A stretch of 64,000 nt of DNA from Pristiophorus japonicus (Eukaryota), in assembly GCF_044704955.1 (NCBI RefSeq), contig NC_091984.1, forward strand, positions 146,444,001-146,508,000, read 5' to 3'. The position numbers and the translations under genes are program-made. Below are positions 36,440-64,000 of the stretch, piece after piece (positions within the stretch are counted from its first letter, which is position 1; every line of letters starts with the position of its first letter). The notes beneath the pieces were generated by a model that searched no databases, was not told where the DNA came from, and was given only the letters and a program-made list of their open reading frames with translations.

Positions 36440-36467
36440 GGTTTTTGTACAGCTGTGTATCACAGTG
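36440..36467 (-). other. V recombination signal sequence, 12-bp spacer
   Basis: CACTGTG + ATACACAGCTGT + ACAAAAACC on the - strand. Confidence 0.95.
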
Positions 36468-36953: not shown

Positions 36954-37002
36954 CTGCGATGCAGAATGCCAGAGGCCAGATCAGCTGGATGGGTGAAATC
37001 AT
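36954..37002 (-). CDS. IGKV: Ig light chain leader exon (MISPIQLIWPLAFCIA-G)
   Basis: ATG at 37002, 49 nt, donor G|GTACC, phase 1 matching the V exon; hydrophobic signal peptide. Confidence 0.93.
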
Positions 37003-37059
37003 GATGTCTGCTCCTGTCCCTGTGCCTGCTTACTGATAAACTGCCCTTCACTGGGCCCT

Positions 37060-37160
37060 GCTTTATAAACCTGCAGCCTGTGAGAGTCTCACTGCCCATC
37101 CCTCAGTATGTAAATGTCTTCACCCAGAGAAAGCCACGTCAGCACATTTCACTTCCTCTT
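37060..37160 (-). promoter_or_regulatory. IgL V promoter: TATA, variant octamer, TGACGTGG, Ets-IRF composite element
   Basis: TTTATAAA 37062-37069; ATTTACAT 37108-37115; TGACGTGG 37134-37141; GGAAGTGAAA 37147-37156. Confidence 0.78.
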
Positions 37161-37959: not shown

Positions 37960-39590
37960 GCGAGGAACTTAACACAATCACAATCACTAAGGAGGTGGTA
38001 CTCAGTAAGATAATGGAACTAAAGGCGAATAAATCCCCTGGATCTGATGGCTTGCATCCCAGGGTCTTATGAGAACACGCGGCAGTCTCAGTGGATGCAT
38101 TGGTTGTAATTTACCAAAATTCCCTGTATTCTTGGGAGGTCCCAGCAGATTGTAAAACTGCAAATGTAACGCCCCTATTTACAAAAGGAGGCAGACAAAA
38201 AGCAGGAATCGATAGACCAATTAACCTAACATCTGTGGTTGGGAAAATGTCGGAGTCCATTATTAAAGAAGCAGTAGCAGGACATTTGGATAAGCATAAT
38301 TCAGTCAGGCAGAGTAAGCATGGAATTATGAAGGGGAAGTCATGTTTGATAAATTTGCAGAATTCTTTAAGGATGCAATGAGCAGGGTGGATAAAGGGGA
38401 ACCAGTGGATGTGGTGTATTTGGACCTCCAGAAGGCATTTGACAAAATGCCACGTAAGAGGTTACTGCACAAGATAAAAATTCACAGGGTTGGGGGTAAT
38501 ATGTTAGCAAGGATAGACGATTGGCTAACTAGCAGAAAACAGAGAGTCTGCAAAAATGGTTCATTTTCGGGTTGGGAATCAGTAACTAGTGGGGTGCCGC
38601 AGGGATCAGTGCGGGGACCCCAACTATTTACAATATATATTAACGACTTGGATGATGGAACCGAATATAATGTAGCCACGTTTTCTGACGATACAAAGAT
38701 GTGAGGAAAAGCAATATGTGAGGAGGACACAAAAAACCTGCAAAAGGACGTAGGCAGGCTAAGTGAGTGGGCAAAAATTTAGCCGATGGTGTATAATGTT
38801 GGAAAGTGTGAGATCATGCACTTTGGCAGAAAAAAACAATCAAAGAGCAAGTTATTATTTAAATGGAGAAAGATTGCAAAGTGCTGTGGTGCAGCGGGTA
38901 CTTGTGCATGAAACACAAAATGTTAGTATGCAGATACAGTAAGTGATCAGGAAGGCCAATGGAATATTGGCCTTTATTGCAAAGGGGACGGAGTATAAAA
39001 GCAGGGAAGTCTTGCTACAGCTATACAGGGTATTGGTGTGGACACACTAATTTTGGATTCCATATTTAAGAAAGGATATACTTGCTTTGGAGGCAGGTCA
39101 GAGAAGGTTCATTAGGTTGATTCAGGAGATGAGGCGGTTGATTTATGAGGAAAGCTTGAGTAGGTTGTGCATCTGCTCATTCGAATTCGGAAGAATGAGA
39201 GGTGATCTTATTGAAACGTATCAGATTTTGAGGGGGCTTGACAAAGTGGATGCAGAGAGGATGTTTCCACTGAGGGGGAGAATTGAACTAGAGGGCACAG
39301 TCTTAGAATAAGTGGCCTCCCATTTAAAACAGATGATGAGGAATTTCTTCTCTCTGAGGGTTGTAAATCTGTGGAATTGGCTGCCTCAGAGATCTGTGGA
39401 AGCTGGGTCGTTGAATAAATTTAAGACAGAGATAGACAGTTTCTTAACCGACATGGGAATAAGGGGTTATGGGGAGCGGGGAGGGATGTGGAGCTGAATC
39501 CATGATCGTATCGGCCATGATCGTATTAAATAGCGGAGCAGGCTCGAGGGGCCATGTGGCCTACTCCTGCTCCTATTTCTTATGTTCTTT
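37960..39590 (+). mobile_element. 5'-truncated CR1
   Basis: Decayed RT motifs through to the TTTCTTATGTTCTT tail. Confidence 0.9.
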
Positions 39591-40050
39591 AACTGGTGAG
39601 GAATGGGACTAATTGGGTAATTCTTTGAAAGAGCCGGCAAAGGCACGATGGGCCGAATGGCCTCCTTCTGTGCTTAAGATTCTAGGCTGTGAGCGCGGTT
39701 CACAGTTTTCTCCCGTGTCATTAACAAACGTACAGCTGTGACAACCTCCCTCTTTCACTTCCTCTGTGGGTGAAGTTTCATTCTTCCGATCTGACAGTCT
39801 CTTCAGTTATTTTTTGCACGGGGGATTTCTGCTGTGGTCTGAGTCTCTAATAATAACCGTCCAATCAGGCAGAATAGCAGCAGCTCGGACCGGCCCTGAC
39901 AGCGGATCCAGGCTCAGTGCTGACCCTGCAACATCCTCCTCACCAACATCTGGGGACTTGTGCCAAAAGTGGGAGAGCTGCCCCACAGACTAGTCAAGCA
40001 CCAGCCTGACATAGCCCTACTCACAGAATCAGACCTTTCAGCCAATGTCC
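39330..40050 (+). repeat. Segmental duplication arm B (inverted copy at 53119-53815)
   Basis: Shared CR1-tail junction, ~330 bp of unique-looking core and a shared LINE-EN junction. Confidence 0.9.
39733..39765 (-). promoter_or_regulatory. Candidate B-cell enhancer: E-box CAGCTG + EICE AGAGGAAGTGAAA
   Basis: Motifs at 39733-39738 and 39753-39762, both retained in the paralog (53431-53436, 53407-53416). Confidence 0.5.
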
Positions 40051-40365
40051 CAGACTCCTCCATCACCCAAGGTGGCAGCTCAGTGGTATACAGTCGGGAG
40101 GGAGTGGCCCTGGGAATCCTCAACATTGACTCCGGACCCCATGAAGTCTCATGGCATCAGGTCAAACACGGGCAATGAAACCTCCTGCTGATTACCACCT
40201 CCCGCCCTCCCTCAGCTGATGAATCAGTACTCCTCCATGTTGAACACCACTTGGAAGAAACACTGAGAGTAGCAAGGGCACAGAATGTACTCTGGGTGGG
40301 GGACTTCACTGTCCATCACCAAGAGTGTCTCGGTAGCACCACTACTGACTGAGCTGGCCGAGAGG
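39925..40365 (+). mobile_element. LINE APE-endonuclease fragment (family distinct from the local CR1s)
   Basis: NIWGL..PDIALLTES..RPPS..WVGDF.VHH. Confidence 0.7.
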
Positions 40366-42588: not shown

Positions 42589-45500
42589 TCAGCAGCAGTC
42601 GGGAGCAGCGTCGGAGGTGCGTGGAGAGGCCTATAAAAGGCACAGCAGGGAGTCCGGGGCCCAGCCTCGGGAGCAGTGTCGAGGAGGTCCATTGGTGAGG
42701 CCTATAAAAGGCAGAGCAGGGAGTCCGGGGCCCAGCCTCGGGAGCAGCGTCGAGGAGGTCCATTAGTGAGGCCTATAAAAGGCACAGCAGGGAGTCCGGG
42801 GCCCAGCCTCGGGAGCAGTGTCGAGGAGGTCCGTTGGTGAGGCCTATAAAAGGCACAGCAGGGAGTCCGGGGCCCAGCGTCGGGAGCAGTGTCGAGGAGG
42901 TCCGTTGGTGAGGCCTATAAAAGGCACAGCAGGGAGTCTGGGGCCCAGCCTCGGGAGCAGTGTCGAGGAGGTCCGTTGGTGAGGCCTATAAAAGGCACAG
43001 CAGGGAGTCCGGGGCCCAGCCTCGGGAGCAGTGTCGAGGAGGTCCGTTGGTGAGGCCTATAAAAGGCACAGCAGGGAGTCTGGGGCCCAGCCTCGGGAGC
43101 AGTGTCGAGGAGGTCCGTTGGTGAGGCAAAAAAGAAGTAGAAAGAAACAGAAAGGTGACGTCACAGCCAAGGGGGTAAGTGATTGGCTGGTGATTGGCGA
43201 GTACTTTTTATTTTTTCTCTTCTATAACAGTGAGTAACTTTAGCATTGTTGTTGCCTATCTCAGGGTTAAGTCATGGCAGGACAGTTCGGTCACGTGTTA
43301 TGCTCCTCCTGTACCATGTGGGAACTCAGGGACGACTCCAGTGTCCCTGACGACTACATGTGCGGGAAGTGTATCCGCCTCCAGCTCCTGACGGACCGCG
43401 TTGCGGAGTTGGAGCAGAGGGTGGATTCACTCTGGAGCATCCACGATGCTGAGAATGACGTGAGTAGCACATGTAGCGAGTTGGTTGTACCGCAGGTAAA
43501 GGGTCCACAGCCAGCTTGGGAATGGAAGACCAGCAGGAAGAGCAGAGCAAGGAAGGTAGTGCAGGGGTCTCCTGTGGTCATCCCCCTGCAAAACAGATAC
43601 ACTGCTTTGAGTACTGTTGAGGGGGATGACTCATCAGGGGAGGGCAGCAGCAGCCAAGTTCATGGCACCGTGGCTGGCTCTGTTGCACAGGAGGGCAGGA
43701 AAAAGAGTGGGAGAGCGATAGTGATAGGGGATTCAATTGTCAGGGGAATAGATAGGTGTTTCTGCGGCTGCAACCAAGACTCCAGGATGGTACGTTGCCT
43801 CCCTGGTGCAAGGGTCAAGGATGTCTCGGAGCGGGTGCAGGACATTTTAAAAAGGGAGGAAGAACAGCCAGTTGTCGTGGTGCACATTGGTACCAACGAC
43901 ATCGGTAAAAAAATGGATTAGGACCTACGAAACGAATTTAAGGAGCTACGAGCTAAATTAAAAAGTAGGACCTCAAAAGTAGTAATCTTGGGATTGCTAC
44001 CAGTGCCACGTGCTAGTCAGAGTAGGAATCGCAGGATAGCGCAGATGAATACGTGGCTTGAGCAGTGGTGCAGCAGGGAGGGATTCAAATTCCTGGGGCA
44101 TTGGAACCGGTTCTGGGGCAGGTGGGACCAGTACAAACCGGACGGTCTGCATCTGGGCAGGACCGGAACCAATGTCCTAGGGGGAGTGTTTGCTCGTGCT
44201 GTTGGGAAGGAGTTAAACTAATGTAGCAGGGGGATGGGAACCAATGCAGGGATACAGAGGGAAACAAAAAGGAGACAAAAGCAAAAGACAGAAAGGAGAT
44301 GAGGAAAATTGGAGGGCAGAGAAACTCAAGGCAAAGAACAAAAAGGGTCACTGTACAGCAAAATTCTAAAAGGACAAAGGGTGTTAAAAAAACAAGCCTG
44401 AAGGATTTGTGTCTTAATGCAAGGAGTATCCATAATAAGGTGGATGAATTAACTGTGCAAATAGATGTTAACAAATATGATGTGATTGGGATTACAGTGA
44501 CGTGGCTCCAGGATGATCAGGGCTGGGAACTCAACATCCAGGGGTATTCAACATTCAGGAAGGATAGAATAAAAAGAAAAGGAGGTGGGGTAGCATTGCT
44601 GGTTAAAGAGGAAATTAATGCAATCGTTAGGAAGGACATTAGCTTGGATGATGTGGAATCTATATGGGTAGAGCTGCAGAACACCAAAGGGCAAAAAACG
44701 TTAGTGGGAGTTGTGTACAGACCTCCAAACAGTATAGTGATGTTGGGGAGGGCATCAAACAGGAAATTAGAGGTGCATGCAATAAAGGTGCAGCAGTTAT
44801 AATGGGTGACTTTAATATGCACAGAGATTGGGCTAACCAAACTGGAAGCAATACGGTGGAGGAGGATTTCCTGATGTGCATAAGGGATGGTTTTCGAGAC
44901 CAATATGTCAAGGAACCAACGAGGGGGGAGGCCATCTTAGACTGGGTGTTGTGTAATGAGAGAGGAATAATTAGCAATCTCGTTGTGCGAGGCCCCTTGG
45001 GGAAGAGTGACCATAATATGGTGGAATTCTGCATTAGGATGGAGAATGAAACAGTTAATTCAGAGACCATGGTCCAGAACTTAAAGAAGGGTAACTTTGA
45101 AGGTATGAGGCGTGATTAGGCCAGGATAGATTGGCGAATGATACTTAAGGGGTTGACTGTGGATGGGCAATGGCAGACATTTAGAGACCGCATTGATGAA
45201 CTACAACAATTGTACATTCCTGTCTGGCGTAAAAATAAAAAAGGGAAGGTGGCTCAATCGTGGCTATCAAGGGAAATCAGGGATAATATTAAAGCCAAGG
45301 AAGTGGCATACAAATTGGCCAGAAATAGCAGTGAACCCGGGGACTGGGAGAAATTTAGAACTCAGCAGAGGAGGACAAAGGGTTTGATTAGGGCAGGGAA
45401 AATGGAGTACGAGAAGAAGCTTGCAGGGAACATTAAGACGGATTGCAAAAGTTTTTATAGATATGTAAAGAGAAAAAGGTTAGTAAAGACAAACGTAGGT

Positions 45501-47256
45501 CACCTGCAGTCAGAATCAGGGGAAGTCATAACGGGGAACAAAGAAATGGCGGACCAATTGAACAAGTACTTTGGTTCACTATTCACTAAGGAGGATACAA
45601 ACAACCTTCCGGATATAAAAGGGGTCAGAGGGTCTAGTAAGGAGGAGGAACTGAGGGAAATCCTTATTAGGCGGCAAATTGTGTTGGGGAAATTGATGGG
45701 ATTGAAGGCCGATAAATTCCCAGGACCTGATGGACTACATCCCAGAGTACTTAAGGAGGTGGCCTTGGAAATAGCGGATGCATTGACAGTCATGTTCCAA
45801 CATTCCATTGAATCTGGATCAGTTCCTATCGAGTGGAGGGTAGCCAATGTAACCCCACTTTTTAAAAAAGGAGGGAGAGAGAAAACAGGGAATTATAGAC
45901 CGGTCAGCCTGATATCGGTAGTGGGTAAAATGATGGAATCAATTCTTAAGGATGTCATAGCAGTGCATTTGGAAAGAGGTGACGTGATAGGTCCAAGTCA
46001 GCATGGATTTGTGAAAGGGAAATCATGCTTGACAAATCTTCTGGAATTTTTTGAGGATGTTTCCAGTAGAGTGGACAAGGGAGAACCAGTTGATGTGGTG
46101 TATTTGGACTTTCAGAAGGCTTTCGACAAGGTCCCACACAAGAGATTAATGTGCAAAGTTAAAGCACATGGGATTGGGGGTAGTGTGCTGGCATGGATTG
46201 AGAACTGATTGTCAGACAGGAAGCAAAGAATAGGTGTAAGTGTGTACTTTTCACAATGGCAGGCAGTGACTAGTGGGGTACCGCAAGGTTCTGTGCTGGG
46301 GCCCCAGCTGTTTACACTGTACATTAATGATTTAGACCAGGGGATTAAATGTAGTATCTCCAAATTTGCAGATGACACTAAGTTGGGTGGCAGTGTGAGC
46401 TGCGAGGAGGATGCTGTGAGGCTGCAGAGCGAGTTGGATAGGTTAGGTGAGTGGGCAAATGCATGGCAGATGAAGTATAATGTGGATAAATGTGAGGTTA
46501 TCCACTTTGGTGGGAAAAACAGAGAGACAGACTATTATCTGAATGGTGACAGATTAGGAAAAGGGGAGGTGCAACGAGACCTGGGTGTCATGGTACATCA
46601 GTCATTGAAGGTTGGCATGCAGGTACAGCAGGCGGTTAAGAAAGCAAATTACATGTTGGCCTTCATAGCGAGGGGATTTGAGTACAGGGGCAGGGAGTAT
46701 TGTGTACAGTTTTGGTCTCCTAACCTGAGGAAGGACATTCTTGCTATTGAGGGAGTGCAGCGATGGTTCACCAGACTGATTCCCGGGATGGCGGGACTGA
46801 CCTATCAAGAAAGACTGTATCAACCGGGCTTGTATTCACTGGAGTTCAGAAGAATGAGAGGGGACCTCATAGAAACGTTTAAAATTCTGATGGGTTTAGA
46901 CAGGTTAGATGCAGGAAGAATGTTCCCAATGTTGGGGAAGTCCAGAACCAGGGGTCACAGTCTAAGGATAAGGGATAAGCCATTTAGGACCGAGATGAGG
47001 AGAAACTTCTTCACCCAGAGAGTGGTGAACCTGTGGAATTCTCTACCTCAGAAAGTTGTTGAGGCCAATTCACTAAATATATTCAAAAAGAAGTTTAATG
47101 AAGTCCTTACTACTAGGGGGATCACGGGGTATGGCGACAAAGCAGGAATGGGGTACTGAAGTTACATGTTCAGCCATGAACACATTGAATGGCGGTGCAG
47201 GCTTGAAGGGCCGAATGGCCTACTCCTGCACTTATTGTCTATGTTTTCTATGTTTT
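42589..47256 (+). mobile_element. Near full-length CR1 LINE (decayed)
   Basis: 5' monomers, ORF1 43274-44221 (internal stop), ORF2 ~44230-47159 (few lesions), tail; possible TAATC duplication. Confidence 0.95.
42600..43126 (+). repeat. CR1 5'-UTR tandem monomers, 71 bp x ~7.5, each with GGCCTATAAAAGGC
   Basis: CTATA at 42631, 42702, 42773, 42844, 42915, 42986 and 43057. Confidence 0.92.
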
Positions 47257-47304
47257 CTAATCCCCTTCCCACACACGGTGCAGAATCTCTATGATCACGG
47301 ACTC

Positions 47305-50300
47305 TATGGGGGATAAATTCGATCGGCCCTGCAAACATGCGCGAGGATCACGATGCGGGATTAACCCACGCCCATAGCTCCCGATGCAGGCAGCAGGCCA
47401 AATTTGTGCTGCCTGCTAACCAACATGATTTTTGCGCGCACCCAGCACTAACTGTGCTGTTGAGTGGCTACAGGCCTCAGCGGCCGGGGCCCAAGGTTGT
47501 GTGAGGCTGGCACCAGTTAAAGCTGGCCTGCACCTCTTAATGGACAAGTAAAATGTGTCTGGAGCAGGTGCTGGAAGTGGCTGTGGACGACATTCTGACC
47601 TGGACCAAGACGTACTGATGACACAACAGGGGAGAGAGCCGGCTCCAAGATCCTCCAGCGCTGCACTGAAGGCCTTGGGGGAGGAGGTGCAGAGGGGGAG
47701 AGATGTTCTCTACCCACACGGGGCGAGGAGGCTCCACCAGACAAACGTTTCGAAGGCAGTGAGACCAGGACCCGAGGACTGGGATGTAGTGCCGCCAAAT
47801 GTTCAATGACCTCACGAGAGTGGTCAAGGTCGGTGAATTCATCTTCAAATGCCGTGTCCCACCAACTGCTCCACTAGTCTCACACATTGCTCAATGTACC
47901 ACACCCCCATCACCCACTACCAACAATCTCTAGCAATCAGGACTCATACACAAGGACAGAAGGTATAGGAGCAGGAGTGGGCCATACGGCCCCTCGAGCT
48001 GGTCCACCATTCAATAAGATCATGGTGGATTTGATCTTGGCCTCAATTCCACTTCGCCGCCTGTTCCCCATAACCCGTGACTCTCCTGTAGTTCAAGAAT
48101 CTGTCTATCTCAGCCTTGAATATAGTCAATGACCCAGCCCCCACAGCTCTCTGGGGCAGAGAATTCCAAATATTCACGACCCGGAGAGAAGAAATTTCTC
48201 CTCATCTCCATCTTAAATGGGGTCCCCTTATTCTGAGACTATGCCCCCTAGTTCCAGATTCCCTCACAAGGGGAAATATCCACACTCACAGCTTCACCTC
48301 ACTCTCACACACTTAGATTCTGCTGCAAGCCTCACGCCCACATCTCACAGCTTGCACACACGGCCAGCTATTCAACCGTGACAGGCGCATCACCCAAACA
48401 CAGGGCACCACACTCACCGATACACTTCCCTCTCTTGCAGAGCAAGGTGGCCCAGAACCCGAGGCAGCAGGAGCTCAGTGGCGGGGGGCAGGCGCGCCCA
48501 GATGTCCTTATCCCCGTGGAGCAGACGGTGCTCGCCATCATTGGCGTGCCCATCGCTGAGCTCGTGGCCAGTGGCGGGGCGGAACCACAGAAGATGATGA
48601 TATGGCCGTACCTAATCCTCCTTCTCACATCCCACATCCCCCACAGCGCACAATCCCTTCTGATTTACAAGCTGCGGATGAGGGAAAGCATGCCCCTCTT
48701 ACATCGACCCCCCCACCACCACCCTTCCCGCACTGCAACCCTCCCCTTGTACCTTTCTCCTTTCACATACCCAGGAACTGCCACTTGGCCAGGCAGTGTT
48801 GGAAGAGCAAGAGGTGGAAAAGACAGAAGACATGATGGTGAAGACACACCGTCCCTCGATTTCACACTCACAGCCACCAGCTCAGATACTGACACTGCGT
48901 GTAATGTAGAGGGTAGTGTAGAGGCGGGATCGGCACGTGGTGAGACACCGGGCACGAGGGGCATGCAGCCAGGGCAGGGGGCAAGGATGGCGCAGGTTCC
49001 AGCTCGCCGGAGGGTGAGGTCACACACGGGTTCTGGTGTAGAGGACTCAGATGAGGATTTCGATGGGTGGGCTACAGAAGAAGGCTGATGGGTATGTACA
49101 ATGAAATGCTTGGTGCATTGGGAACCCTGCCAGAAAGCCTGTGCTCAATGTCAAGGAGCACGGAGGAGTCGGGCACCAGCTTGGCACAGGGCTTTGCGCA
49201 GAGCTTGGAGCCCATCCTTTCCAGCACGGAATGGTGGCCCACTCCATTGGGGCCCTTGTGGACCCGGCCATGATGCAGCGTCTGATGGCCGATGTCTCGG
49301 CTTCCATTGCAGCACAAGCAGCAGCCACCCAACGCCATGCAAGCTCAGATTGCTGCCATCATGGCTGCAGATTCCAGTGTTCAAAGGGGCTTGCAGGGTG
49401 TCACAGCAGTCCAGCAATCTGCCCGCCCGGGAATGATGCACCCCCTCCCCCCAGGGGAATGGCAGTGGCTCCATGGTGCACAAACCTACTGTCCTCTCTC
49501 AGAATGACAACATTCCTACACCCACCACTGCCACTCCACCAGTGTCGATGCTGTTGCCTGTCAGCCAGCCAGCCCAGACTGCTGCCGCCAAGGCCGAGGT
49601 GATGCAGTCCACAGCCGGGCCTTCTAGGCCCAGAGCTGCTCGAGGTCGCCTTCCAAGGCCATCTCCAGTCTCCCCAACTGAAAGTCAGCAGCCTTCCAGC
49701 AGCCCTGCTGCATCCCTTGGGGTATCAGTGCATAGGAGCACTAGGACAGGCAAAGACACACACAAGGCAGACACCAAGGGAATGCACCGGGGGATTAGTG
49801 GGCTTTTTGATGTAATATTGGATGCAGTGTCGCCCCCAACATCTGGCACCACTGCCCACAGAAGTTTCATGCCCTCAGACCACTGGTCAAGGTCAGGGAG
49901 TGAATCTTCAAAAGCCGTCTCCTACCAACTGCACCACTAGCCTCGCACACTGCTCAATGTCCGACCCCCTGCCCCCCACAATCGCTCACGTACCAACAAT
50001 CTGTACCAAACACCAGGCATACCTCCCAGTCCCAGCCTCACCTCACCCCCTTGGAGAAGACGCTGCAGGCCATTCTTGGCAGGGGCATGGCTGAGCCCCT
50101 GGCCAGGGGCAGGGCAAAAAGGATACAAGATGCTTGTATCCTCGTACGTTATCCTCCTTCTCACGTCCCACTTCCCCCCTCAGAATAAGAATCGCTTCTA
50201 ATTTACAAGGTGTGCAAGGTGTAAGTAGGCAGCTCTTGCTTTCCCGCCTCCCCTCACCACAACTCCACCCTTCCTCATTTCACACACCCAAATCCAGCCT

Positions 50301-51420
50301 GCCCAGCTCACGGGTGACCAAGCAGATGGAGAGGAGAGTGAAGAAGACACACTGTCACTCGATTTCTCACTCCCAGCCACCTGCTCCTCAAGGTCGACCA
50401 GCAAGGCCATCTGCAGTGTCCCCCACTGAAAGTCAGCAGCCTTCCAGCAGCCCTGCTGCAGCCCCTGGGGTAGCACTGCGTGACATCAGTACGATAGGCA
50501 AAGACACACACAAGACAGTGACGAATGGCGATCAGTTGATTTTTTGATGTATTATTGGATGCAGATATGGATAAAGTTGGATTGGAAAGTTTGCTTTGTG
50601 GGGGCTTTTATTTCAGCATTGTGGCCAAGAGGACGATGTGATGGTCAGTAACAGAGGAAAGGTAAGCTGTGGGACTAATGTTGAAAGAGGATTGGGGTGG
50701 TGGTCACTGGGACCACAGGCGGATGATTCGATCCCGGATATCCCGGCCAGAAAGCGACTGTCTGGGTTGCCTCCTTCCTTCCACTTCCTCCTCCTCCCTT
50801 TGCAAGCAGAAGTTGGAAATCTGAAATAAAGGCAGTAAATGCTGGAAATACTCAGCAGGTCAGGCAGCATCTTGAGCTGAAACGTTAACTCTGTCTCTCT
50901 CCATGGATGCTGCCTGACCTGCTGAGTATTTCCAGCATTCACGGTCTTTCCAGGGACCTTCCTTTACCACCTGAGGCCTTGCACGTGTCCAGCAGCACCC
51001 CTTGCATTCCCTGCACAATGAAAAAACATTGAACATTTATTGTACTAAGCCACTACTTCCATAAAATATATTGTTTAAAACAGACCAGAGCTTAAATGCA
51101 AACATACCTGAAAGATGTGTGGCTCGTTAAGAAGCACCAACTGCATCTGTGCAGGGCTGCTTCACGCCTGCTTTTCTGTGTGTGCTTAGGGCAGGGCCAT
51201 ATGGTGAGCGCAAACGCCCCAATTAACAGTCATGGCTCGAGCCAGGCATTGGTGTCACCATCTGACAATCCACATTGTGAGGCGAGTGCTGCCAACGACA
51301 GCGGTAAGGCCCTTACCAAAATGGTGGATGACGTGTCCCGGGCCGCAAGCAAGGCGGCTGTGATTATTTGAACAAAACCCTCTTATTGGCTGGTGCTAGA
51401 CCGGGGAAATTCTAGGCCAA
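47305..51420 (+). mobile_element. Decayed PIF/Harbinger DNA transposon (intron-containing Myb/SANT gene remnant; transposase largely deleted)
   Basis: PAPRSSSAALKALGEEVQRGRDVLYP; CRQMFNDLTRVVK|gt; cag|KVAQN.RQQELSGGG; weak TIR-like ends; CR1 fragment nested at ~47950-48280. Confidence 0.62.
50838..50939. repeat. Perfect 34-bp inverted repeat with a 34-bp loop (short palindromic interspersed element)
   Basis: AATGCTGGAAATACTCAGCAGGTCAGGCAGCATC ... GATGCTGCCTGACCTGCTGAGTATTTCCAGCATT. Confidence 0.9.
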
Positions 51421-51424
51421 AGAA

Positions 51425-53010
51425 TCATAAGAACATAAGAAATAGGAGCAGGACTCGGCCATTTGGCCCCTCGAGCCTGCTCCGCCATTCAATAAGATCA
51501 TGGCTGATCTGATCCTGGGCTCAGCACCACTTCCCTACCCGTTCCCCATAACCCTTTACTGCATTATCGTTCAAAAATCTGTCTATCTCCACCTTAAATA
51601 TATTCAATGACCAGCCTCCACAGCTCTCTGGGGCAGAGAACTGAACAGATTTACAACCCTCTGAGAGAAGAAATTCCTCCTCATCTCAATTCTCAATGGG
51701 CGACCCCTTATTCTTAAACTCTGCCCCCTAGTTCTAGATTTCCCAATGACTGGAAACATCCTCACTGCATCTATCTTGTCGAATCCCCTCAGAATCTTAT
51801 ATGTTTCAATAAGTTCATCTCTCATTCTTCTAAACTTCAAAGAGTATATGTGGAGCGGGCGGGGAAGTGGAGCTGACTCCATGATCAGATCAGCCATGAC
51901 CTTATTGAATGGCAGAGGGGCCGTATGTCCTACTCCTGTTCCGATTTCTTATGTTCTAATTAACCTGCTCAACCTTTCTTCATAAGTCAGCCCCTTCTTC
52001 TCAGGAATCAACCTCGTGAACCTTATCTGAATTGCCTCCAGTGCAAATATATCCCTCCTTACATAAGGAGACCAAAACTGTGCACAGTACTCTCGGTGTG
52101 GTCTCACCAATACCCTGTACAGATGTAGCAGGACTTCCCTGCTTTTATACTCCATCCCCCTTGCAATTAAGGCCAACATTTCATTTGCTTCCTGATTACT
52201 TGCTGTATCTGCATACTAACTTTTTGTGTTTCATACACAAGGACCCCCAGGTCCCTCTGTGTTACAGCATTTTGTAATCTCTCTCCATTTAAATAATAAT
52301 TTGCTCTTTGATTTTTTACACTCGGTCCCTTCATATAAGTTATTACCATAGATTGTAAATAGTTGAGGCCACAACACCGATCCCTGTGAAACCCAACTAG
52401 TTACCGTTTGCCAACCAGAAAATGACCCATTGATCCTGACTCTCTGTTTTCTGTGAGCTAGCCAATCCTCTATCCATGCTAATATATTAGCACCAACCCC
52501 ATGTTCTCTTATCGTGTGCGGTAATCTTTTATGTGGCATCTTATTGAATCCCTTCTAGAAATCCAAATACACCACATCCACTTGTCCCCCCATATCCACC
52601 CTGTGCGTTACGTCCTCAAAGAACTCCAACAAATGTGTCAAACATGATTTCCCTTTCATAAAAACATGCTGACTCTGCTTGATTGAATTATGCTTTTCCA
52701 AATGTCCTGTTACTGCTTCCTTAATAATGAACTCCAGCATTTTCCCAACGACAGATGTTAGGCTAACTGGTCTATAGTTTACTGCTTTCTGTCTCTCTTT
52801 TTTAAATAGGGGCGTTATATTTGCGGTTTTCCAATCTGCTGGGACCTCTCCAGAATTCTGGGAACTTTGGTAGATTGCAACCAATGCATCCACTATCTCT
52901 GCAGCCACTTCATTTAAGAGCCTAGGATGCAGGCCATCAGGTCCAGGGGACTTGTCCACCTTTAGTTCCATTATTTTACCGAGTACTTTTTCTATAGTGA
53001 TAGTGATTGT
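51425..53010 (-). mobile_element. 5'-truncated CR1
   Basis: KSPGPDGLHPR..YRPVSLTS..tail. Confidence 0.88.
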
Positions 53011-53118
53011 TTTCTCAGCACAGAATCTCTCACACCCAGAATCTCAGAACAGACTCTTCTTCAAAAGGGTTCCTGTTTAAGGGTTCACGGGATTCGGGGG
53101 TGGGGAGAGGAGGCAGTA

Positions 53119-53815
53119 GGACATTGGCTGAAAGGTCTGATTCTGTGAGTAGGACTATGTCAGGCTGGTGCTTGACTAGTCTGTGGGGCAGCTCTCCCAC
53201 TTTTGACACAAGTCCCCAGATGTTGGTGAGGAGGACGTTGCAGGGTCAGCACTGAGCCTGGGTCCGCTGTCCTAGCCGGTCCGAGCTGCTGTTATTCTGC
53301 CTGATTGGACAGTTATTATTAGAGACTCAGACCACAGCAGAAATCCCCCGTGCAAAAAATAACTGAAGAGATTGTCAGATCGGAAGAATGAAACTTCACC
53401 CACAGAGGAAGTGAAAGAGGGAGGTTGTCACAGCTGTACATTTGTTAATGACACGGGAGAAAACTGTGAACCGGGCTCACAGCCTAGAATCTTGCAGCAC
53501 AGAAGGAGGCCATTCGGCCCATCGTGCCTGTGCTGGCTCTTTGAAAGAATTACCCAATTAGTCCTACTCCCCCTCATTTTAAGAACATAAAAAATAGGAG
53601 CAGGAGTAGGCCACATGGCCCCTCGAGCCTGCTCTGCTATTTTATACGATCATGGCCCATCCGATCATGGATTCAGCTCCACATCCCTGCTTGCAGTCCA
53701 TAACCCCTTATTCCCTTGTCGGTTAAGAAACTGCCTATCTCTGTCTTAAGTATATTCAATGACCCAGCCTCCACAGATTTACAACCCTCTGAGAGAAGAA
53801 ATTCCTCCTCATCTC
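53119..53815 (-). repeat. Inverted copy of arm B
   Basis: Reverse complement of 39330-40050. Confidence 0.9.
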
Positions 53816-53819
53816 AGTG

Positions 53820-56422
53820 TCCTCTACCGTAAAAACTGATACAAAATATTTGTTCAGAGTTTCTGCCATCTCCATGTTCCCCATCACTAATTCCCTGGTT
53901 TTGTCCTCTCAGGGACCAACTTTATTTTAGCCACTCTTTTCCTTTTTATACACCGATAGAAACTCTTGCTATCTCTTTTTATATTTTGTGCTAGTTTACT
54001 TTCATCGTCTATCTTTCCATTCTTAATCATTTTTTTCGTCATTCTTTGCTGGCTTTTAAAAGTTTCTCAATTTCTGTCCTCCCACTAGTTTTGGCCACTT
54101 TGTATGCCCTTGTTTTTAATTGGATACCATCCTTTATTTCTTTAGTTAGCCACGGATGGCTATCTTTTCTTTTACACCATTTCCTCCTCACTGGAATATA
54201 TTTTTCTTGAGAGTTGTGAAATATCTCCTTATATGTATGCCATTGTTCATCAGCCATCCTACACTTTAATCTATTTTCCCAGTCCACTTTAGCCAAATCT
54301 GACCTCATACCTTTGTAGTCTCCATTATTTAAGCTTAGTACGCTGGTTAGAGATCCATCTTTCTCACCCTCCATCTGAATTTGAAATTGAACCATGTTAT
54401 CATCACTCAGTCCAAGGGGATCCTTTACTGGGAGCTTGTTTATTAATACTGTCTCATTATACAGGACCAGATCTAAGATTGCCTGCCCCCTGGTTGGTTC
54501 CATTACATACTACTCAAGGAACCCGTCCCTTATGCACTCTATGAACTCTTCCTCAAGACTACCCTGACCAATTTGATTTATCCAATCAATGTGGAGATTA
54601 AAATCACCCATAATTATTGCTGTTCCCTTTTTACAATCCTCCACTATGTCTTGCTTTATACTCCGATCAACAGAGTTGCTAATGTTAGGGGGCCGATAGA
54701 TTATGCCCACCAGTGACTTTTTCCCTTTATTATTCCTTATCTCCACCCAAACTGTTTCAACATCCTGATCATTTGAGCCAATATCATTTCTCACTATTGC
54801 AGTGATTCCATCCTTTATCAACAGAGCAACCCCACCTCCTTTTCCTTTCTGTCTGTCCTTCCGGATTGTCAAGGACTCCTGAGTATTTAGTTCCCAGTCC
54901 TGGTCACCTTGCAACTATGTCTATGTAATGGCTATCAGATCATATTCATTTGTATCTATTATGTGCCGTCAACTCATCTATTTTGTTATTTAGACAAAGA
55001 GCCTTTAAATTTGTTTTTTTACCCTTTTTATCTGCTTGTTTCCTCTCTCCTTCAAACTCACTTTCTTTATTTTTGCTTGCTAATTCCAGCTTTAGTCCCC
55101 TCCCTACTGAATCTATTCTCCGGTTCCCATCCCCCTGCCAAGCTAGTTTAATCCCTCCCCAACATCACTAACAAATGCTCCCCTCGAGGATATTGTCCCA
55201 GCTCTGTTGAGGAGCAACCTGGCCGGTTTGTACAGGTCCCACCTCCCCCAGAAACGGTCTCAATGCCTCAGGAAACTAAAGTGTCCCACCTGCACCATCT
55301 CTCCCGCCACGCATTCATCTGCTCTATCCTCCTGTTTCTGTATTCACCAGCTAGTGGCACCGGGAGTAATCCGGAGATTAGAGAATAATTAGAGATTAAA
55401 GATTCTGAGAGATAAATTCTTCCTCATCTCGCTCTCACCTCAGCCCCCTAGTTCTAGTCTCCCCTATCAGTGGAAACATCCTCTCTGCATCCACCTTGTA
55501 AAGCCCCCTCATAATCTTTCATTTTTTGATAAGATCACCTCTCTTTCTTCTGAATTCCAATGAGTAGATGCCCAACCTACTCAACCTTTCCTGAAAAGAA
55601 AATCCCCCTCATCTCTGGAATCAATCTAGTGAACCTTCTCTGAACTACCTCCAAAGCAAGTATATCCTTTCTTAAATATGGAAACCAAAATTGCATGCAG
55701 TATTCCAGGTGTGGCCTCACCAATACCCCGTAAAACTGCAGCAAGACTTCCGTACTTTTATATTCCATTCCCATTACAACAATGGCTAAGATTCATGACC
55801 ACTTGCTGTACCTGCATACTATCCTTTTGTGTTTCATGCACAAGTACCCCCAGGTCCCGCTGTACTACAGCACTTTGTAATTTTTCTCCATTCGAATAAT
55901 AACCTGCTCATTGATTTTTTTCTGCCAATGTGCATAACCTCACAGTTTCAAACATGATAATCCATCTGCCAAATTTTTGCCCACTCACTTAGCCTGTCTA
56001 TATCTTTTTGCAGGTTTTTTGTGTCTTCCTCACACATTGCTTTTACTCCCATCTTTGTATCATCAGCAAACATGGCTATGTTACACTCGGTCCCTTCATA
56101 CAAATCATTAATATAGATTGCAAATAGTTGGGGTCCTAACACTGATCCCTGCGGCACCCTAGTAGTTACGGATTGCCAGCCCGGAGAATGAACCATTTAT
56201 CATGACTCTCTGTTTTCTGTTAGTTTGCCAATCCTCTATCCATTCTAATGTATTACCCCAAACCCCATGAGCTTTTATCTTGTGCAGTAACCTTTTATGT
56301 GTCACCTTGTCAATTGCCTGCTGGAAGTCCAAATACACCACATAAACTGATTCCTCTTTATCCACCCTGTTCGTTACATCCTCAAAGAACTCCAGCAAAT
56401 TTGTCAAACATGACTTCCCCTT
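53820..56422 (-). mobile_element. CR1 fragments (ORF1 end/EN at 53820-55380; RT at 55400-56422 continuing at 59380-59600)
   Basis: IYRPPN..MGDFN; KGKSCLTNLLEFF split by the LTR element. Confidence 0.85.
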
Positions 56423-59379
56423 TGTTATGTATTGTCCAGGTACATTAAATTTATAAGTGCAATGGTGCGCCATAGAGGACGCTGTGGTGGGAGACTGGAA
56501 AGTACCTGCAAGACAGAGTCTAAAAGTCTGCCCACCACACCTGAGAGGCACTCTGGAGTCAGACAATGAAGGACTAAGGTCACAGCAGTTACTACAACAC
56601 CAGACTGTGTGGAGTCAGTGATTTGAGTGCGACATACATCACATTGGCGACAAGGACACGGACGAACTTCATGCATCATGCAACTATGGCTACTCTGGGC
56701 TCGTTAAAGGATTTTACAGTGGGAAATGATTGGGAGGCCTTTACGAAAAGGTTCGAGTACTACTTCACAGCAAACAACCCGACGGGGCACACGGACGCAC
56801 TGAGAGAAGCGTAAGGCGATATTACTTTCCAGCTGTGGCGATGAGGTTTACTGTCTTGTCAGGGATTTGCCGGCACCCGGGAGCGCCAGGGACAAGTCAT
56901 ATGAGAAGCCGGTGGTACTCATTCGTGACCAACTTACGTGACCAAAGGAGAGCATCTTCACAGCCCGGTACAAATTCTATCACCACTGCAGACCTGAAGA
57001 CCAGGATGTCACCAAATATGCTACGGACCTCAAGAGACTCGCGGCGCGATGTGATTTTGGCACACACCTTGAAGATGCGTTGCGAGACGTTTTTGTTTTG
57101 GGGATTGGCCATGAGGGTCTCTTTCTCAAGCTGCTATCCACGGAACCTACAGTCACCATGAAGCAAGTCATCACCACCAGCAGGGCATTTATGGCCTCGA
57201 CTTGCAGCACCAAACAGATGATCCACACAGTCTCGAATCCGGCAGGCACTGTCCACAGGATAGCACCCACCATGGACAAACTGCAAAACGTGGCTCTGCC
57301 TGGGGCAGAGAGCACGGACCTCGAGGTACTGGAACTCAGAGTCCGCTGAGGGGGGCTAATCGAGTAGCACCATGCTGGCGCTGTGGAGGAAGCCATGGGG
57401 CTCACCGGTGCAGGTTTGCGGAGTATACGTGCAATACCTGCCACATGAAAGGCCACCTTCAGCGTATGTTTGAAAGAGACACGACTCACCGTGTGGCTGA
57501 GGAGATGGTAGAGGGTCCATTTTCCGGCCAGGAACAGGCAGAAGAAGACAAGGCATTGTTTGGATTATACACGTGTACCGATGGTTCGGCCCCGGTGATT
57601 ATGGAGGTCAAGATTAACGGAGTCCCAGTGAGTATGGAAGTAGATACTGGCTCGGGTCCGTCGTTGCTGAGTCAGGAAACTTTTGAAAAACTGTGGGTTA
57701 ACCCAGCTGCACGACCCAAGCTGGTCCCGGTCATGGCAAAGCTGCGTACCTACACCAAGGAACTGATACCTGTTCTTGGCAGAGCAGATGTGCAGGTATC
57801 TCACGGGGACGAGATGCACGGTTTACCTTTGTGGGTCATTGCAGGCGATGGGCCGCGCTTCTCGGCAGAAGGTGGATGGGAAAGGTCCGTGGGAGCTGGG
57901 AAGACTTCACTCCTCCACAGACCGCTGTCCCCCGGGTCCCCAAAGAGCAGCACCAACCGAGCTGGAGAAGAAGTAAGCAGTTCATCAGCAGCCTCAATTC
58001 CACAGGCCACAGCAACCCTGCAGCCCCAACCCTGGAAGAGCAGCTTTTCAACCCGGCTGCAGGACTGGCGGCAGGTGCTGGAGCAGGAGCGGAGGCTCAG
58101 GAGAGGCGGCACCAGCGGCAGGAATGGAGGCTGCAGCGGCGGCGGAGGCTACGGAGGCGGCAGCTATGACTTGGGAGAACGCGATTTCTTGGACAGATAC
58201 AGGAGCCAGAGCAGATGCAGGAGTCAGAACAGAGGAAACGGCCAGATTCAAGATCATGCTTTGGCTGTTTTCTTTCCTTCTTTCTTCATTATTTCTTCTT
58301 TTCCAGAGAGTAAAATGGCAGGCCAGCGAGCTCAAGATGGCGGCAGCAGAGCTCTGCAAAGAACAAAGGCAAGCAGTACAACTAAAATGGCGGCGCCCAA
58401 GGGAAGCCTCGTGGGAACCACAAGATGGCGTCTTAAAAGGGAAATCCACCCGGGAATCTTAAAAGGGCCTTACACCATTGGCGGTCCCCACAAAGAGACT
58501 TTTGTAAGGCAAGAGCGAGTCTAAATGAGCAATGTGAATGTAGGATGACAGATTTATGATAAGAATTAATATTTTAATGCTGAATGGTTACTGTGTTTAA
58601 AATAATGGATATGAATTACGATTTATGATAAGAGTTAATATTTTAATTCTGAATGGTTACTGTGTTTAAAATTATGGATATGAATTACGAAAAGAGTTAA
58701 TACCATGAGGTTCAGGTAAAAGGGATATGGACCCGTGACTAACATGACCAACGGCTAATGCGATTTTCGCTTTAGCTGATTCATGCAATGGTTCAGCGGC
58801 TGCTAAGGCGACTATTTCAGCGCAGCCCATTACCTCGGGCAAAAAGGAGCTGTGTACAGCCACCGTACCTCACCCAGGTAACTGTTCAGTGTACCTGCAA
58901 CCTTTTGACATAACATCTGTACCACATATTATATGTACCATACAAATGTACCATCTATGTATACCTACTTTCTGTTGGAGGTTATGCTCGTGTGCTTTAT
59001 CCACCACGTAAGGACTGCAAATACCACATGTGTACACCGAGTCCTCCACATGGGGAGAAGAGGGAAGTGGATGGTCATGGACTCACACTCACAAATCAAC
59101 CAGGACGAACAAGGCCGAGGTCACCGGCAATGGCTTTTGGAACTGGGGGGAGAGTGAGTTGTTATGTATTGTCCAGGTACATTAAATGTATAAGTATAAT
59201 GGTGAGCCACAGAGGGCGCTGTGGTTGGAGACCTGAAAGTACCTGCAAGACATAGTATAAAAGGCTGCCCACCACACCTGAGAGGCACTCTGGAGTCAGA
59301 CAATAAAGGACTAAGGTCACAGCAGTTACTACAAACCAGACCGTGTGGAGTCAGTGATTTGAGTGCTACATACATCATA
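56423..59379 (+). mobile_element. Non-autonomous Ty3/Gypsy (Mag-like) LTR element, gag-protease only
   Basis: ~220-bp LTRs at 56423-56643 and 59160-59379; TSD CCCTT; PBS TGGCGACAAGGA (tRNA-Ser-like); PPT ~59145-59158; DWEAFTKRFEYYF, two knuckles, VDTGSG. Confidence 0.92.
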
Positions 59380-61780
59380 CCCTTCATAAATCCATGCTGA
59401 CTCTGCCTGACTGAATTTTGCTTTTCCAAATGTCCTGCTACTGCTTCTTTAATAATGGACTCCAACATTTTCCCAAGCACAGTTATGTTAGGCTAACTGG
59501 TCTATAGTTTCCTGCTTTTTGTCTGCCTCCTTTTTTAAATAGGGGCGTTACATTTGTAGTTTTCCAAACTGCTGGGACCTCCCAAGAATCCAGGGAATTC
59601 TCAGTGTCCTATCATGTAATGTGTATTCCTTTGATTGTTAGACTTCCCCAAATGCATTACCTCACAGTTCTCGGGATTGAAATCCATTTGCCACTGTTCT
59701 GCCCACCTGACCAGTCCATTGATATCTTCCTGCTGTCTACAGCTTTCTTCCTCACTATCAATCACACAGCTAATTTTTGTATCATCTGCAAACTTCTTAA
59801 TCATGTTCCCTACATTGAAGTCTAAATCATTGGTGTATATTACAATGTGCAAAGGACTTAGTACCGAGCCCTGCGGACCCCACTCGAAACAGCCTTCCAG
59901 TCACAAATACACACGTTGACCATTCCCCTTTGCTTCCTGCCACTGAGCCAATTTTGGATCCAACTTGCCACTTTCCCTTGGATCCCATGGGCTTTTTACG
60001 TTTCTGCCACATGAGACTTTGCCAAAAGCCTTGCAAAAATCCATGTATACTCCATCAAAGGTGCAACACTCATCGACCCTCCTTGTTATCTCCACAAAAA
60101 ATTCAATCAAGTTAGTCACGCATAACATTCTCTTAACAAATCCGTGCTGATTGTCCTTGATTAATCCATCCCTTTCTATATGACAATTTATCCTCTCCCT
60201 CGGAATTGTTTCCAATAATTTTCCCACCACCGAGGTTACGCTGACTGGTCTGTTATTACTCGGTCTATCTCTTTCCCCTTTTTAAACAAAGGCACCATGT
60301 TAGCAGCCCTCCAGTCCTCTGACACCTCACCTGTAAACAGGGTAGATTGAAAAATGATGGTCAGAGCCTCTGCTATTTCCTCCCTTGCTTCTCTTCACAA
60401 CCTGGGATACATTACATGCTAAACCCCTTAATACTTCTTCACTCACTATGTTTATCTCATCGAATATTTCACACTTGTCCTCCTTAATTACAATGTCTGC
60501 ATCGTCCCTCTCTTCTGTGAAGGTAGGTACAAAGTATTCATTTAGAACTATTCCCACATCTTCCGCTTCCACACACAGGTTACCTTTTTGGTCTCCAATA
60601 GGCCACACTCTTTTTTTAGTTATCCTCTTGGTCTTTATGTATTTATAAAACATCTTTGAGTTTTCCCTGATTATACTTGACAATATTTTTTCATACCCTC
60701 TCTTTGCATTCCTAATTTCCTTTTTAATTTCACCCCTGCACTTTCTATACTTCTCTGGGCTTTCTGCAGTATTTAGCTCTGGGTATCTGACATAAGCTTC
60801 CCTTTTTTGCCTTAACCTACCCTGTATGCCCTTTGACATCCAGGGGCTCTAGATTTGGCAGTCCCACCCTTTTCCTTTGTGGGAACATACTTGCTCTGAA
60901 CACTCACTATCTCCCCCTTGAATGCCTCCCACTGCTCTGACACTGATTTACCTTCAACAGAAGAACATAAGAACTAGGAAAAGGAGTAGGCCATATGGCC
61001 CCTCAAGCCTGCTCCTCCATTCAATAAAATTATGGCTGATCTGATCATGGACTCAGCTCCACTTCCCCGTCCGCTCCTGATAACCCCTTATCCCCTTATC
61101 ATTTAAGAAACTGTCTAATTCTGTCTTAAATTTATTCAATGTCCCAGCTTCCACAGCTCTCTGAGGCAATGAATTCCACAGATTTACAACCTTCTCAGAG
61201 AAGAAATTTCTCCTCATCTCTGTTGTAAATGGGTAGCCCCTTATTCTATGAGCATGTCTTCTAGTTCTAGTGGAAACATCCTCTCTGCATCCACCTTGTC
61301 AAGCCTATTCATAATCTTATATGTTTCCATAAGATCACCTCTCATTCTTCTGCTTTCCAATGGGTAGAGGCCCAACCTACTCAACCTTTCCTCATAAGTC
61401 AACCCCCTCATTTCCAGAATCAACCGAGTGAATCTCCTCTGAATTGCCTCCAAAGCAAGTATATCCTTTCGTAAATATGGAAACCAAAACTGCACGCAAT
61501 ATTCCAGGTGTGGCCTCACCAATACCCTGTAGAGCTGTTGCAAGACTTCCTTGCTTTTATACTCCATTCCCCTTGCAATAAAGGCCAAGATTCCATTGGC
61601 CTTCCTGGTCACTTGCTGTACTTGCATACTACCCTATTGTGTTTCATGCACAAGTACCCCCAGGTCCCGCTGTACTGCAACCTACCCAATCTTGCCTCAT
61701 AACTAGATTTGGGAGTGCCACCCTTTTCCTTTGTGGGAACATACTTGCTCTGAACCCTCACTACCTCCCCCTTGAATGCC
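59380..61780 (-). mobile_element. Nested CR1 fragments
   Basis: RT motifs (FADD, NQHGFVK); a younger 3' end inserted at ~60960-61690. Confidence 0.85.
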
Positions 61781-61781
61781 T

Positions 61782-64000
61782 CTCTCAGGTGGGCGTTAAT
61801 GATCCCATGCCACTATTTTGAAGAAGAGCAGGGGAGTTCTCCCCAGTGTCCCGACCAATATTTATTCCTCAATCAACATGACAAAAACAGATTGGGGACG
61901 AAATTTCCCCGCTGTGTGAAAGGGATGTGTTTTCCCTGGGGGGGGAGGGGGCCTACCCGATCCCGAGGGATTTAGCAGAGACGTGAAGCGGATAGCGCCC
62001 CGTGAGCCGTGTCCGCGCCCCGTGAGCCGTGTCCACGTACCGTGAGCCGTGTCCACGTCCCGTGAGCCGTGTCCGCGCTAGGCCTGTGGGTCACGAACCG
62101 GGCCGCACTTCGCTCGCGGGGCGAAACTTACCGGGAGATGCGCACCGCCGCGCCCCGCCATTTGTTTTTGCCGACTTACCCGTCGGGCCTTTCTGTGCCG
62201 ATGTGGTGGGGTCGGTGCCGTCATGGTGCAGCCTGACACTCGCCCCCGAGCCCACCCCCAGGGGAAGTGCAGCGCACCACATTGCGCTCCACTTCCTGTC
62301 AGGGGCCGTGACCCCAATTTTGCTTCCGGGGCAGGAATTGGGCGTGGCAAAATTAACCGCCCCAAACCGGGGCGATACACAATTTGGGCCCATTATCTGG
62401 TCATAGTCACATGTGGGAGCTTGCTGTGTACAAACTGTCTGTCGTGTCTCCTCCATTACCGCAGTGACTACACTTTAAAAGTACTTCATTGGCTGTAAAG
62501 CGCTTTTGGACGTCCTGAGGTGGTGAAAGGCGCTATATAAATGCAAGTCTTTCTTTCCAATTCAGCTCTACATCTTTGAAACCCAAACCCGCGGACAGTG
62601 ACGGACAGATAAAGACCCTGTGGTCCATCCAGCCCGTCCCACACAATTGTGATACCTTGTGTATCACAGTATAGACTCTCCACCCCACCCAAAACTACCT
62701 GATCTCCTGGGAGAGGCGAAAAACCAGGGAAAAAACCCATTGAGGGAAATAAATCTGGGAAACTCCTCTCCGACCCCACCCCCTCCCCCACACCAGGCGA
62801 TGGAAACTAGTCCAGGAGGTCATTGTGGCCCTGAGTTCCTTGCAGTAACTACCTTCTGTAAGTGGTGATCTCCACACCGGCCACAAACAGGTCCTGCACT
62901 CGCTTATGTACAGCTCATGGATTTAAAATTACAAGCTTTCCCCACAGTGTCAAGTGCTGCAAATACTGTGTTACATTATCAGAGTTATATTCTCACTGTC
63001 TGTCATTGTCACAACACTTGCTATATAAATGCAAGTTGTTGTTGTGTTCAGGGGCCGCTGTATCTGGCTCAGGCTTCTTATCCATCCCCCCTTCCCTTCC
63101 CCCTCCATTGGGGGCCGTGCCTTCAGCTGCCTGGGCCCGAACTCCCTGCTCCCTAAATCTCTCTGCCACTCCATCCCTCTCCTCTTTTAAGACCTCCCTT
63201 CAAACCCAATCTGTGACTGAGGGTTTTGATCACCCTCCCAGCCCCTCCCCCTTTGACTCAGCACCACTTTGACCAGATTACGCCTCTGTCAGCTGCCTTG
63301 GGATGTTGTTCTAATGTTCCAGTTACGATAGCAATGCAGGTTGTTGCTGCTGTACCTGGCGGCAGAGCATCTCTGTGTGGATATGCCCCGTGCACCGAGC
63401 TCCGCGGTGAGGCCTCCCACAGTGGAATGGCCTGCTGATGCTCGCTGCAGTGCGGAGTGGCTGCTGACCCACCAATCGGTCTGAGACACCGCCTCACGAG
63501 CGGACGAGGAGATACACGCTGAGATCCACCATCAAATGACACGTGGGGAACTGGAAATGTTTCTGCAAACCTGACTGGAGGTTTGGTACAAACGGGTTTT
63601 ACAAACCAATCAATTGAGTGACACAGAAATTGTCCAAAAATTTGGTCTTTTGAACCAACATCGCCCCCTTTTGGTATGAAGGAAGCACTGCCAATTTCCC
63701 TCACAATTTGACTGAGCTGCAATTTTCAATGTCTCAATACGTGGCTCGCTGTCAATCTTTATTCTATAACGCTCCTTTGAAGCGCTTGGGGAGTTTTACT
63801 GTTTTAAAGGTGCTGTATAAAAGTTGCTGTTGTTGCTTGTTCTGAGTTAGCTGATTCAACTGAGGTCAGGATATGACTCACAGCTCAGACTGTGCGGCAT
63901 CCAGTGATGCAATGTTGTATCGTGGGTTCAAGTCCCACTCCAGGGACCTGATTGCAAAATAAAGACATACATTACTGTGCAGTCCTGAGGGAGTGCTGCA
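61782..64000 (-). repeat. Inverted copy of arm A (runs off the window end)
   Basis: Reverse complement of 14883-17767, with only ~4 VNTR units. Confidence 0.92.

Follow-up and report, generated by a model that had tools for sequence, protein, structure and literature searches.

Can a shark immunoglobulin (Ig) light-chain cluster die by losing its whole coding core, so that its flanks alone remain? The question is raised by a 64,000-nucleotide stretch of the Pristiophorus japonicus genome (NCBI RefSeq assembly GCF_044704955.1, contig NC_091984.1, forward-strand positions 146,444,001 to 146,508,000; hereafter the window, numbered from 1). It carries an intact light-chain cluster of kappa resemblance, with variable (V), joining (J) and constant (C) segments, at 26.0-37.0 kb and, at 53.1-64 kb, an inverted copy of both cluster flanks with no gene between them. 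A first-pass annotation offered two origins for this gene-less copy: a head-to-head duplicated cluster that lost its Ig segments, or a V-J-C cassette that moved into one copy of a duplicated block. Our analysis makes the first probable: the block would be a segmental duplicate of the whole cluster that subsequently lost a gene core of ~20 kb by deletion, retroelements inserting in what was left.

Both flanks are duplicated in inverted orientation and mirror order, as first annotated. Self-BLAST of the window gave 13 matches of at least 200 bp and at least 88% identity lying more than 500 bp apart; three are inverted, and all three stand in mirror order. The first joins arm A (14883-17768, plus strand), 8-11 kb 3' of C, to A' (61780-64000, minus strand), pairing 14883-16874 with 64000-61995 and 17462-17768 with 62075-61780. 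Arm A consists of a minisatellite edge, pieces of short interspersed nuclear elements (SINEs), a unique core at ~15180-15530 and, further along, a SINE broken by a GC-rich insert and a 20-bp minisatellite. The second joins arm B (39331-40048, plus strand), 2.3-3 kb 5' of the leader exon and with a unique core at 39690-39910, to B' (53119-53814, minus strand), pairing 39331-40060 with 53814-53107. The third joins a stretch of a long interspersed nuclear element (LINE) at 38118-38335 to 59599-59380, and the B homology probably reaches on into this interior LINE. Arm likeness, put at roughly 90% by eye, is indeed high and measures higher still when substitutions alone are counted: 93.9% for A (14883-16790), 95.4% for the A core and 95.0% for B (39590-40048), with 91.9% for the B LINE tail. 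The placement of B' and A' also stands, except that A' is truncated by the window edge at 64000 and its outer limit therefore lies beyond the window. At 13508-14904 lies a 33-bp minisatellite, repeated 42 times and organised in higher-order units of ~330 bp that are 96-100% identical; A' runs into this repeat as it reaches the window edge.

Taking a segmental duplication as at least 1 kb at 90% identity or more across junctions of unique and transposable-element sequence, A/A' is one (1.9 kb, 93.9%), while B/B' alone covers 0.7 kb. Transposon junctions are common to both copies, as had been noted: LINE/unique/LINE-tail/LINE-tail in B and B', and a SINE interrupted by an identical GC-rich insert and 20-bp minisatellite in A and A'. 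Because B' precedes A', the block has the order found within a cluster; the spacer of inverted tandem units would run A' then B', so the block would not be inter-cluster spacer. Much of A and B derives from SINEs and LINEs and both cores are multi-copy, as might be expected if they belonged to small families of dispersed mobile elements that have nothing to do with Ig clusters and had come to lie in this pattern by chance. We consider this very improbable, given that each core has a single partner within the 64 kb, that the arms span several unrelated transposable elements plus unique sequence with common junctions, that core depth in public contigs lies two to three orders of magnitude below that of transposon bins, and that B and the V promoter have a 12-mer in common.

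Neither V, J nor C is present in the 7,965-bp interior that separates B' from A', nor is any true recombination signal, in agreement with the annotated absence of V-J-C. Searches with tBLASTn of V and C matched only the intact copies (next best E >= 1.0), and BLASTn of C, J, the V-J spacer and the V/promoter region against 53.1-64 kb gave only simple-repeat or LINE-tail matches. As it retains no recognisable V, J or C remnant, the block is a relic of cluster flanks, not an Ig pseudogene. All but 480 bp of the interior (runs of 58, 399 and 21 bp, the 399-bp run being LINE ORF2, the second open reading frame) is covered by another repeat of the window or by a long terminal repeat (LTR) element. 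Read inward from B', it comprises a LINE fragment lying inside the B' LINE (53815-55380, minus strand) with a ~25-bp repeat of the host LINE on either side; the middle of that host LINE (55443-56422, minus strand; 85% to 38331-39296); an LTR retroelement (56423-59379, plus strand) with 220-bp LTRs 93% alike, a 5-bp target duplication and a decayed protease reading frame; the 5' piece of the host LINE (59380-59599, minus strand; 93% to 38118-38335), which ends in a 1-bp-overlap junction with another LINE, a candidate deletion breakpoint; and, at 59599-61782 (minus strand), the second LINE fragment (84% to 19911-20465) followed by a LINE 3' end at 60957-61680. The first-pass description of this interior as only CR1 and Gypsy sequence holds in that LINE pieces and one LTR element are all it contains; the two family names are our presumption, the domains found being LINE endonuclease/reverse transcriptase and retroelement aspartyl protease. 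The 59599-61782 stretch also has an 80-bp duplicate, 95% identical (60849-60928 and 61703-61782), the copy at the A' edge being cut with 3-bp microhomology. It flanks the LINE 3' end and is unusually long for a target duplication.

Which copy was altered can be read from the edges. At the inner edge of A, the SINE is unbroken in the gene-bearing copy, where 17655-17948 matches the whole SINE at 26729-27003, and it stops at 61780 in the gene-less copy, joined there to LINE sequence through the 3-bp microhomology. Moreover, 28 LINE bp at 60929-60957, next to the 60849-60928 duplicate, are absent from the A'-edge copy, so this junction has lost sequence. On the inner side of B, the adjoining LINE (37971-39589, plus strand; presumably CR1-type) runs on to 37971 in the intact copy. 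Its counterpart is interrupted at 53814 by the 1.6-kb LINE fragment, resumes at 55443, is broken by the LTR element and ends at 59599 in the 1-bp-overlap junction. The outer LINE of B continues past 40200 in the intact copy and is cut at 53119 in the other. The target duplication of the LTR element is perfect, and the intact copy has the corresponding empty site at 38331-38335. The gene-less copy is thus the altered one at every visible edge, and since it is cut wherever the intact copy is continuous, loss from it is favoured over gain by the other. This bears on the cassette proposal, in which V-J-C entered one copy of an older A-B block and the gene-less copy is the empty ancestral site, as its shorter, gene-less interior (8 kb versus 21.5 kb) might suggest. 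The proposal is scarcely credible: at both inner edges the element involved (SINE at 17768, LINE at 39331) is unbroken in the gene-bearing copy and cut in the gene-less one, the aligned edges carry no target duplication, and the common alleles in B are those of the gene-bearing copy.

The junctions also suggest how the loss could have come about. No full heptamer lies within 40 bp of the eight edges examined, and with no recombination signal at the breakpoints neither RAG nor a deletion of the kappa-deleting-element kind is implicated. Junctions 59599 and 61780 join unrelated elements with overlaps of 1 and 3 bp, and neither forms a chimeric repeat with long homology; these are not the marks of deletion by recombination between homologous repeats, although a switch inside the LINE near 53814 is possible. 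Two specific candidates were rejected. Clean recombination between the same-orientation LINEs at 23 kb and 38 kb fails because the 5' piece of the gene-less copy groups with the B copy and not with the 23-kb copy. A recombination-signal-like site with a 23-bp spacer, oriented as in a kappa-deleting element (15505-15543, plus strand; mirrored at 63339-63377, minus strand), has an expected chance count of 0.07 per strand, but its nonamer comes from a SINE's decayed CAA tail (alignment score 41; highest score among shuffles 29) and four similar matches occur at other spacer lengths, so it is probably due to chance; moreover, the site in A is kept whole in A'.

We envisage that one unit of the kappa cluster, 25 kb or more in length and running from A to B, was copied head to head with 13 kb of transposons between the copies. 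One or two microhomology-joined deletions, with breakpoints at 61780 and 59599, would then have removed ~20 kb including C, J, V and promoter, by end-joining or template switching rather than by RAG or clean homologous recombination. Retroelements would subsequently have inserted in the remainder, as the LTR element did, to judge from its target duplication and the empty site opposite. The A-to-B span may be the repeat unit of a kappa cluster family, both cores being present at similar tens of copies.

That copy number comes from public sequencing runs, nine of which hold part of 54-64 kb. Four runs from one sample hold 0.48-0.55 of the sampled words and may be the assembly's own sample, hence not independent support. 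Contigs of three runs (X1, X2 and X4) and of one run of a second organism were aligned to 52760-64000; their summed depth is no copy number and, because contigs drop rare variants, missing cover or alleles are not evidence of absence. Sums over the A-core bin were 777-2312 in three runs, against 1e5-1e6 in LINE and SINE bins. Among the contigs listed, single ones over the B and A cores reached depths of 363-563 in X2 and X4, where the diverged contigs listed (five each) had median depths of 8.7 and 7.7; the core ratios are 47-67 in these two runs and ~24 in X1. Contigs with 23 differences over 62059-62244, where the gene-less and intact copies differ by 22, had depths of 12.9, 7.6 and 4.7, a similar single-copy level. 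By a rough estimate, each core is present in tens of copies (roughly 25-65), A and B being alike in this and both far below transposon levels. The second organism's runs hold 0.06 of the words, with one depth-11 contig on the A core and none among the B-core rows listed, too little to use. A pattern search of metagenome contigs with the B core found nothing, and an Rfam search returned no matches.

These contigs favour the letters of the intact copy, a point for the deletion reading. The 40 variant rows listed, out of 785, include 18 inside A' or B', and 13 of these carry the intact copy's letter, four others being driven by the second organism's contig and one lying in an indel. A depth-437 contig over B' has two differences, and the gene-less and intact copies of B differ there at exactly two places. 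The gene-less copy could instead be an assembly artefact, produced by misjoining or false duplication where tens of copies are nearly identical; even the four best runs cover about half of the 54-64 kb words, and the variant rows listed often show no trace of the gene-less copy's letter. We nonetheless regard an artefact as quite improbable. The 5-6% divergence and the private indels are far beyond sequencing error, the copy has its own LTR insertion with a 5-bp target duplication, and three core sites listed show a residual depth of 3.9-10 without the common letter, about that of one copy, which could also be a third allele.

The rival that carries most weight is that the block was born empty, A' and B' having been copied separately in mirror order, through template switching or two partial duplications, and V-J-C never having been copied. 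Divergence is patchy along the arms: A/A' differ by 4.7% over most of A and by 12.7% in the GC-rich insert, and on the B side the values are 5.0% for B, 8.1% for the LINE tail, 14.8% for the LINE middle, 6.9% for the 5' piece and ~15% for the second LINE. Quartet counts group the B LINE tail with the gene-less copy (13:0:0 and 12:2:0), and likewise the 5' piece (8:0:0 and 5:0:0). CpG decay gives no clear signal (12 versus 14 in A, not one-sided; 6 versus 1 in B), and the second LINE gives no sign of orthology between 19.9-20.5 kb and 59.6-61.0 kb, its 84% identity being like that of other paralogues. The patchiness could reflect exchange among paralogues, for which the interlocus gene conversion between the inverted arms of human IGK offers a precedent (10.1101/006866). 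Piecemeal copying could explain it too, so the born-empty reading keeps weight.

Several observations count against deletion of a once-present core. No V, J, C, intron or promoter remnant survives, and nothing directly shows that the copy ever held them. The interior LINEs are 84-85% identical to their positional counterparts, the level of paralogues, versus 94-95% for the flanks (Fisher p 1e-17, A versus LINE middle). Quartets of the LINE middle against the 61-kb copy split (5:3:1 and 1:6:1), and the 5' piece lies outside what the 61-kb copy covers, so its grouping may be due to subfamily only. The two LTRs have diverged by 7.2%, no less than the flanks (5.2-6.3%) and with no statistical difference between the values, which leaves the sequence of events undated. 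Common A contigs fall between the copies, with 4 and 6 differences from the gene-less copy where it and the intact copy differ at 8 and 11 places, and none of the 32 contig pieces listed bridges a junction of the gene-less copy, a point that serves the artefact reading as well. Furthermore, junctions with microhomology are as compatible with template switching as with deletion, the outer side of B' is also cut inside a LINE, and multi-copy cores would have made donors plentiful. Even so, we think it unlikely, if worth serious attention, that the block never held genes: three blocks stand in correct order and orientation, sequence was removed at the A' junction, and the LINEs adjoining A' and B' are of the same families and orientation as those beside A and B. 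The first-pass proposal of a duplicated cluster that lost its Ig segments is thus partly supported, by junction polarity, the three-block mirror order and cores at tens of copies.

The intact cluster against which this copy is compared lies on the minus strand and has one of each segment, with open frames and splice sites in phase. Its leader exon (36954-37002) is followed by a V exon in open frame (36468-36766; Pfam V-set, E 2e-18), a V recombination signal with a 12-bp spacer (36440-36467), a J segment with an FGKGT motif and GTAAGT donor (34940-34974) and a C exon with an open frame and stop (25976-26304; C1-set, E 2e-24), with AATAAA at ~25245 and ~25340. The J recombination signal (34975-35013, plus strand) has a 23-bp spacer and a nonamer with two mismatches, and V and J are unjoined. 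Upstream, the V promoter region (37003-37160, minus strand) contains a TATA-like box, a one-mismatch octamer (37108-37115) and an Ets-IRF-type 12-mer (37147-37158). Leader and V are identical to a catshark protein without a named function at 86 of 118 residues. PDB matches of the light-chain protein are antibody light chains, one of them named kappa, and a protein search gave three matches, none named by isotype. Layout and resemblance fit a cluster of the shark kappa (NS4/type III) type, although we presume that sigma types have the 12/23 layout too, so that layout does not single out kappa.

At 36540-36570, framework 3 of this V has a run of ten residues in place of the usual glycine-serine loop. 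Two shark-type light-chain sequences, P0001 and P0002, are 81-82% identical to C here; they bear bacterial names, come from very short public contigs and are likely contamination. Three LINE copies (653-5336, 29344-31882 and 42593-47255) are young, at 92-94% alike; one lies inside the J-C intron, and one, almost full-length, carries a 71-bp tandem repeat at the 5' end. An LTR retroelement at 5860-13407 has ~1-kb LTRs 93% alike, a reverse transcriptase and two RNase H-type domains, and broken frames. The GC-rich ~4 kb at 47300-51400, with internal repeats and several open reading frames (two tested, without Pfam match), is probably the relic of a DNA transposon.

If the gene-less copy retains only flanks, could those flanks still matter? 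The 220-bp unique core of B (39690-39910) contains CCAAT, RUNX, kB-like, Ets-IRF and E-box motifs, the first three and the last by their consensus forms, and all five are intact in B' (53257-53478). Among 580 segments of B-core size, two (B and B') hold all five, a set that was chosen after looking at B. The window contains three instances of the 12-base Ets-IRF site, in B, the V promoter and B' (0.03 expected), and the generic Ets-IRF motif is not enriched (4 seen versus 4.35 expected). None of the nine B/B' substitutions falls in a motif, an outcome expected by chance about one time in six, and conservation of the B core does not exceed that of A (4.1% versus 4.7% divergence). The Ets-IRF composite element, bound by PU.1/SpiB-IRF4, was originally identified in the mammalian kappa 3' enhancer (PMC9454692). 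As in that enhancer, a GGAAnnGAAA site is present here, in B and B' as well as in the V promoter, and B has RUNX, E-box and kB-like motifs beside it; unlike that enhancer, B lies 2.8 kb 5' of V rather than 3' of C. As a lead, B is a candidate upstream enhancer of B-cell type. In a bolder version, B would be a PU.1/IRF-type enhancer of every kappa cluster, gene-less copies would keep working versions of it, and B' would either back up the V promoter 16 kb away as a reserve enhancer or sequester the limiting factors that would let just a few shark Ig clusters open in any one B cell. Limiting trans-factors have been proposed for shark Ig cluster choice (PMC2435157), so an orphan enhancer could matter; the bolder version is nevertheless improbable. 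If it were true, gene-less clusters would form a class of Ig loci that lack V, have escaped notice and act in regulation. The unique core of A carries an E-box beside a GGAA-3-GAAA motif (15325-15342 and 63540-63557), 10.6 kb 3' of C and so in a plausible place for a 3' enhancer; the second organism's contig covers this spot.

In the general birth-and-death model, duplication is followed by decay of one copy. The gene-less copy fits this model, death here presumably taking the form of removal of the whole coding core; it is real and most likely an ordinary relic of the process, decayed segmental duplicates being already known as a kind. The footprint of shark Ig birth and death seen by the first-pass annotation is thus plausible and not surprising: where a family has tens of copies and is rich in repeats, specialists would expect segmental duplicates to suffer deletions. 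A search of open-licence literature, over titles and the starts of abstracts, brought up no flank-only shark Ig cluster and no shark light-chain enhancer that stood out. Birth-and-death evolution of Ig genes is named as such in PMC13320880, and V-based annotation of the kind used there would not see a copy whose whole coding core is gone. If our reading is right, a shark Ig cluster can die by losing that core, V-based annotation undercounts turnover, and the duplicated unit is outlined as reaching at least 3 kb upstream from the leader and at least 11 kb downstream of C, with a candidate enhancer indicated.

Known systems place the locus among familiar patterns. Nurse shark NS4/type III kappa has about 50-60 V-J-C units including pseudogenes (PMC2193156, PMC5192425, PMC4279169), and flank copy number here is of the same order as its kappa gene count (PMC2193156, PMC5192425). 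Like NS4, the intact unit has single V, J and C segments, unjoined and with 12/23 signals, and its framework 1 resembles the NS4A primer; V-J spacing is 1.5 kb versus about 0.5 kb in nurse shark. The NS4 pseudogenes described in those papers keep V and J with stops or bad signals, whereas the gene-less copy has no coding segment left. Avian IgH loci also contain inverted copies of an Ig repeat unit, but those supply V pseudogene donors (10.64898/2026.09.05.749481), and a copy without V cannot donate. The proximal/distal duplication of human IGK likewise places an inverted duplicate in a kappa locus with J and C in one arm only; it spans ~0.5 Mb, is over 98% alike and has 62 V genes (10.1101/006866), whereas here ~11 kb is visible, at 94-95%, with no V.

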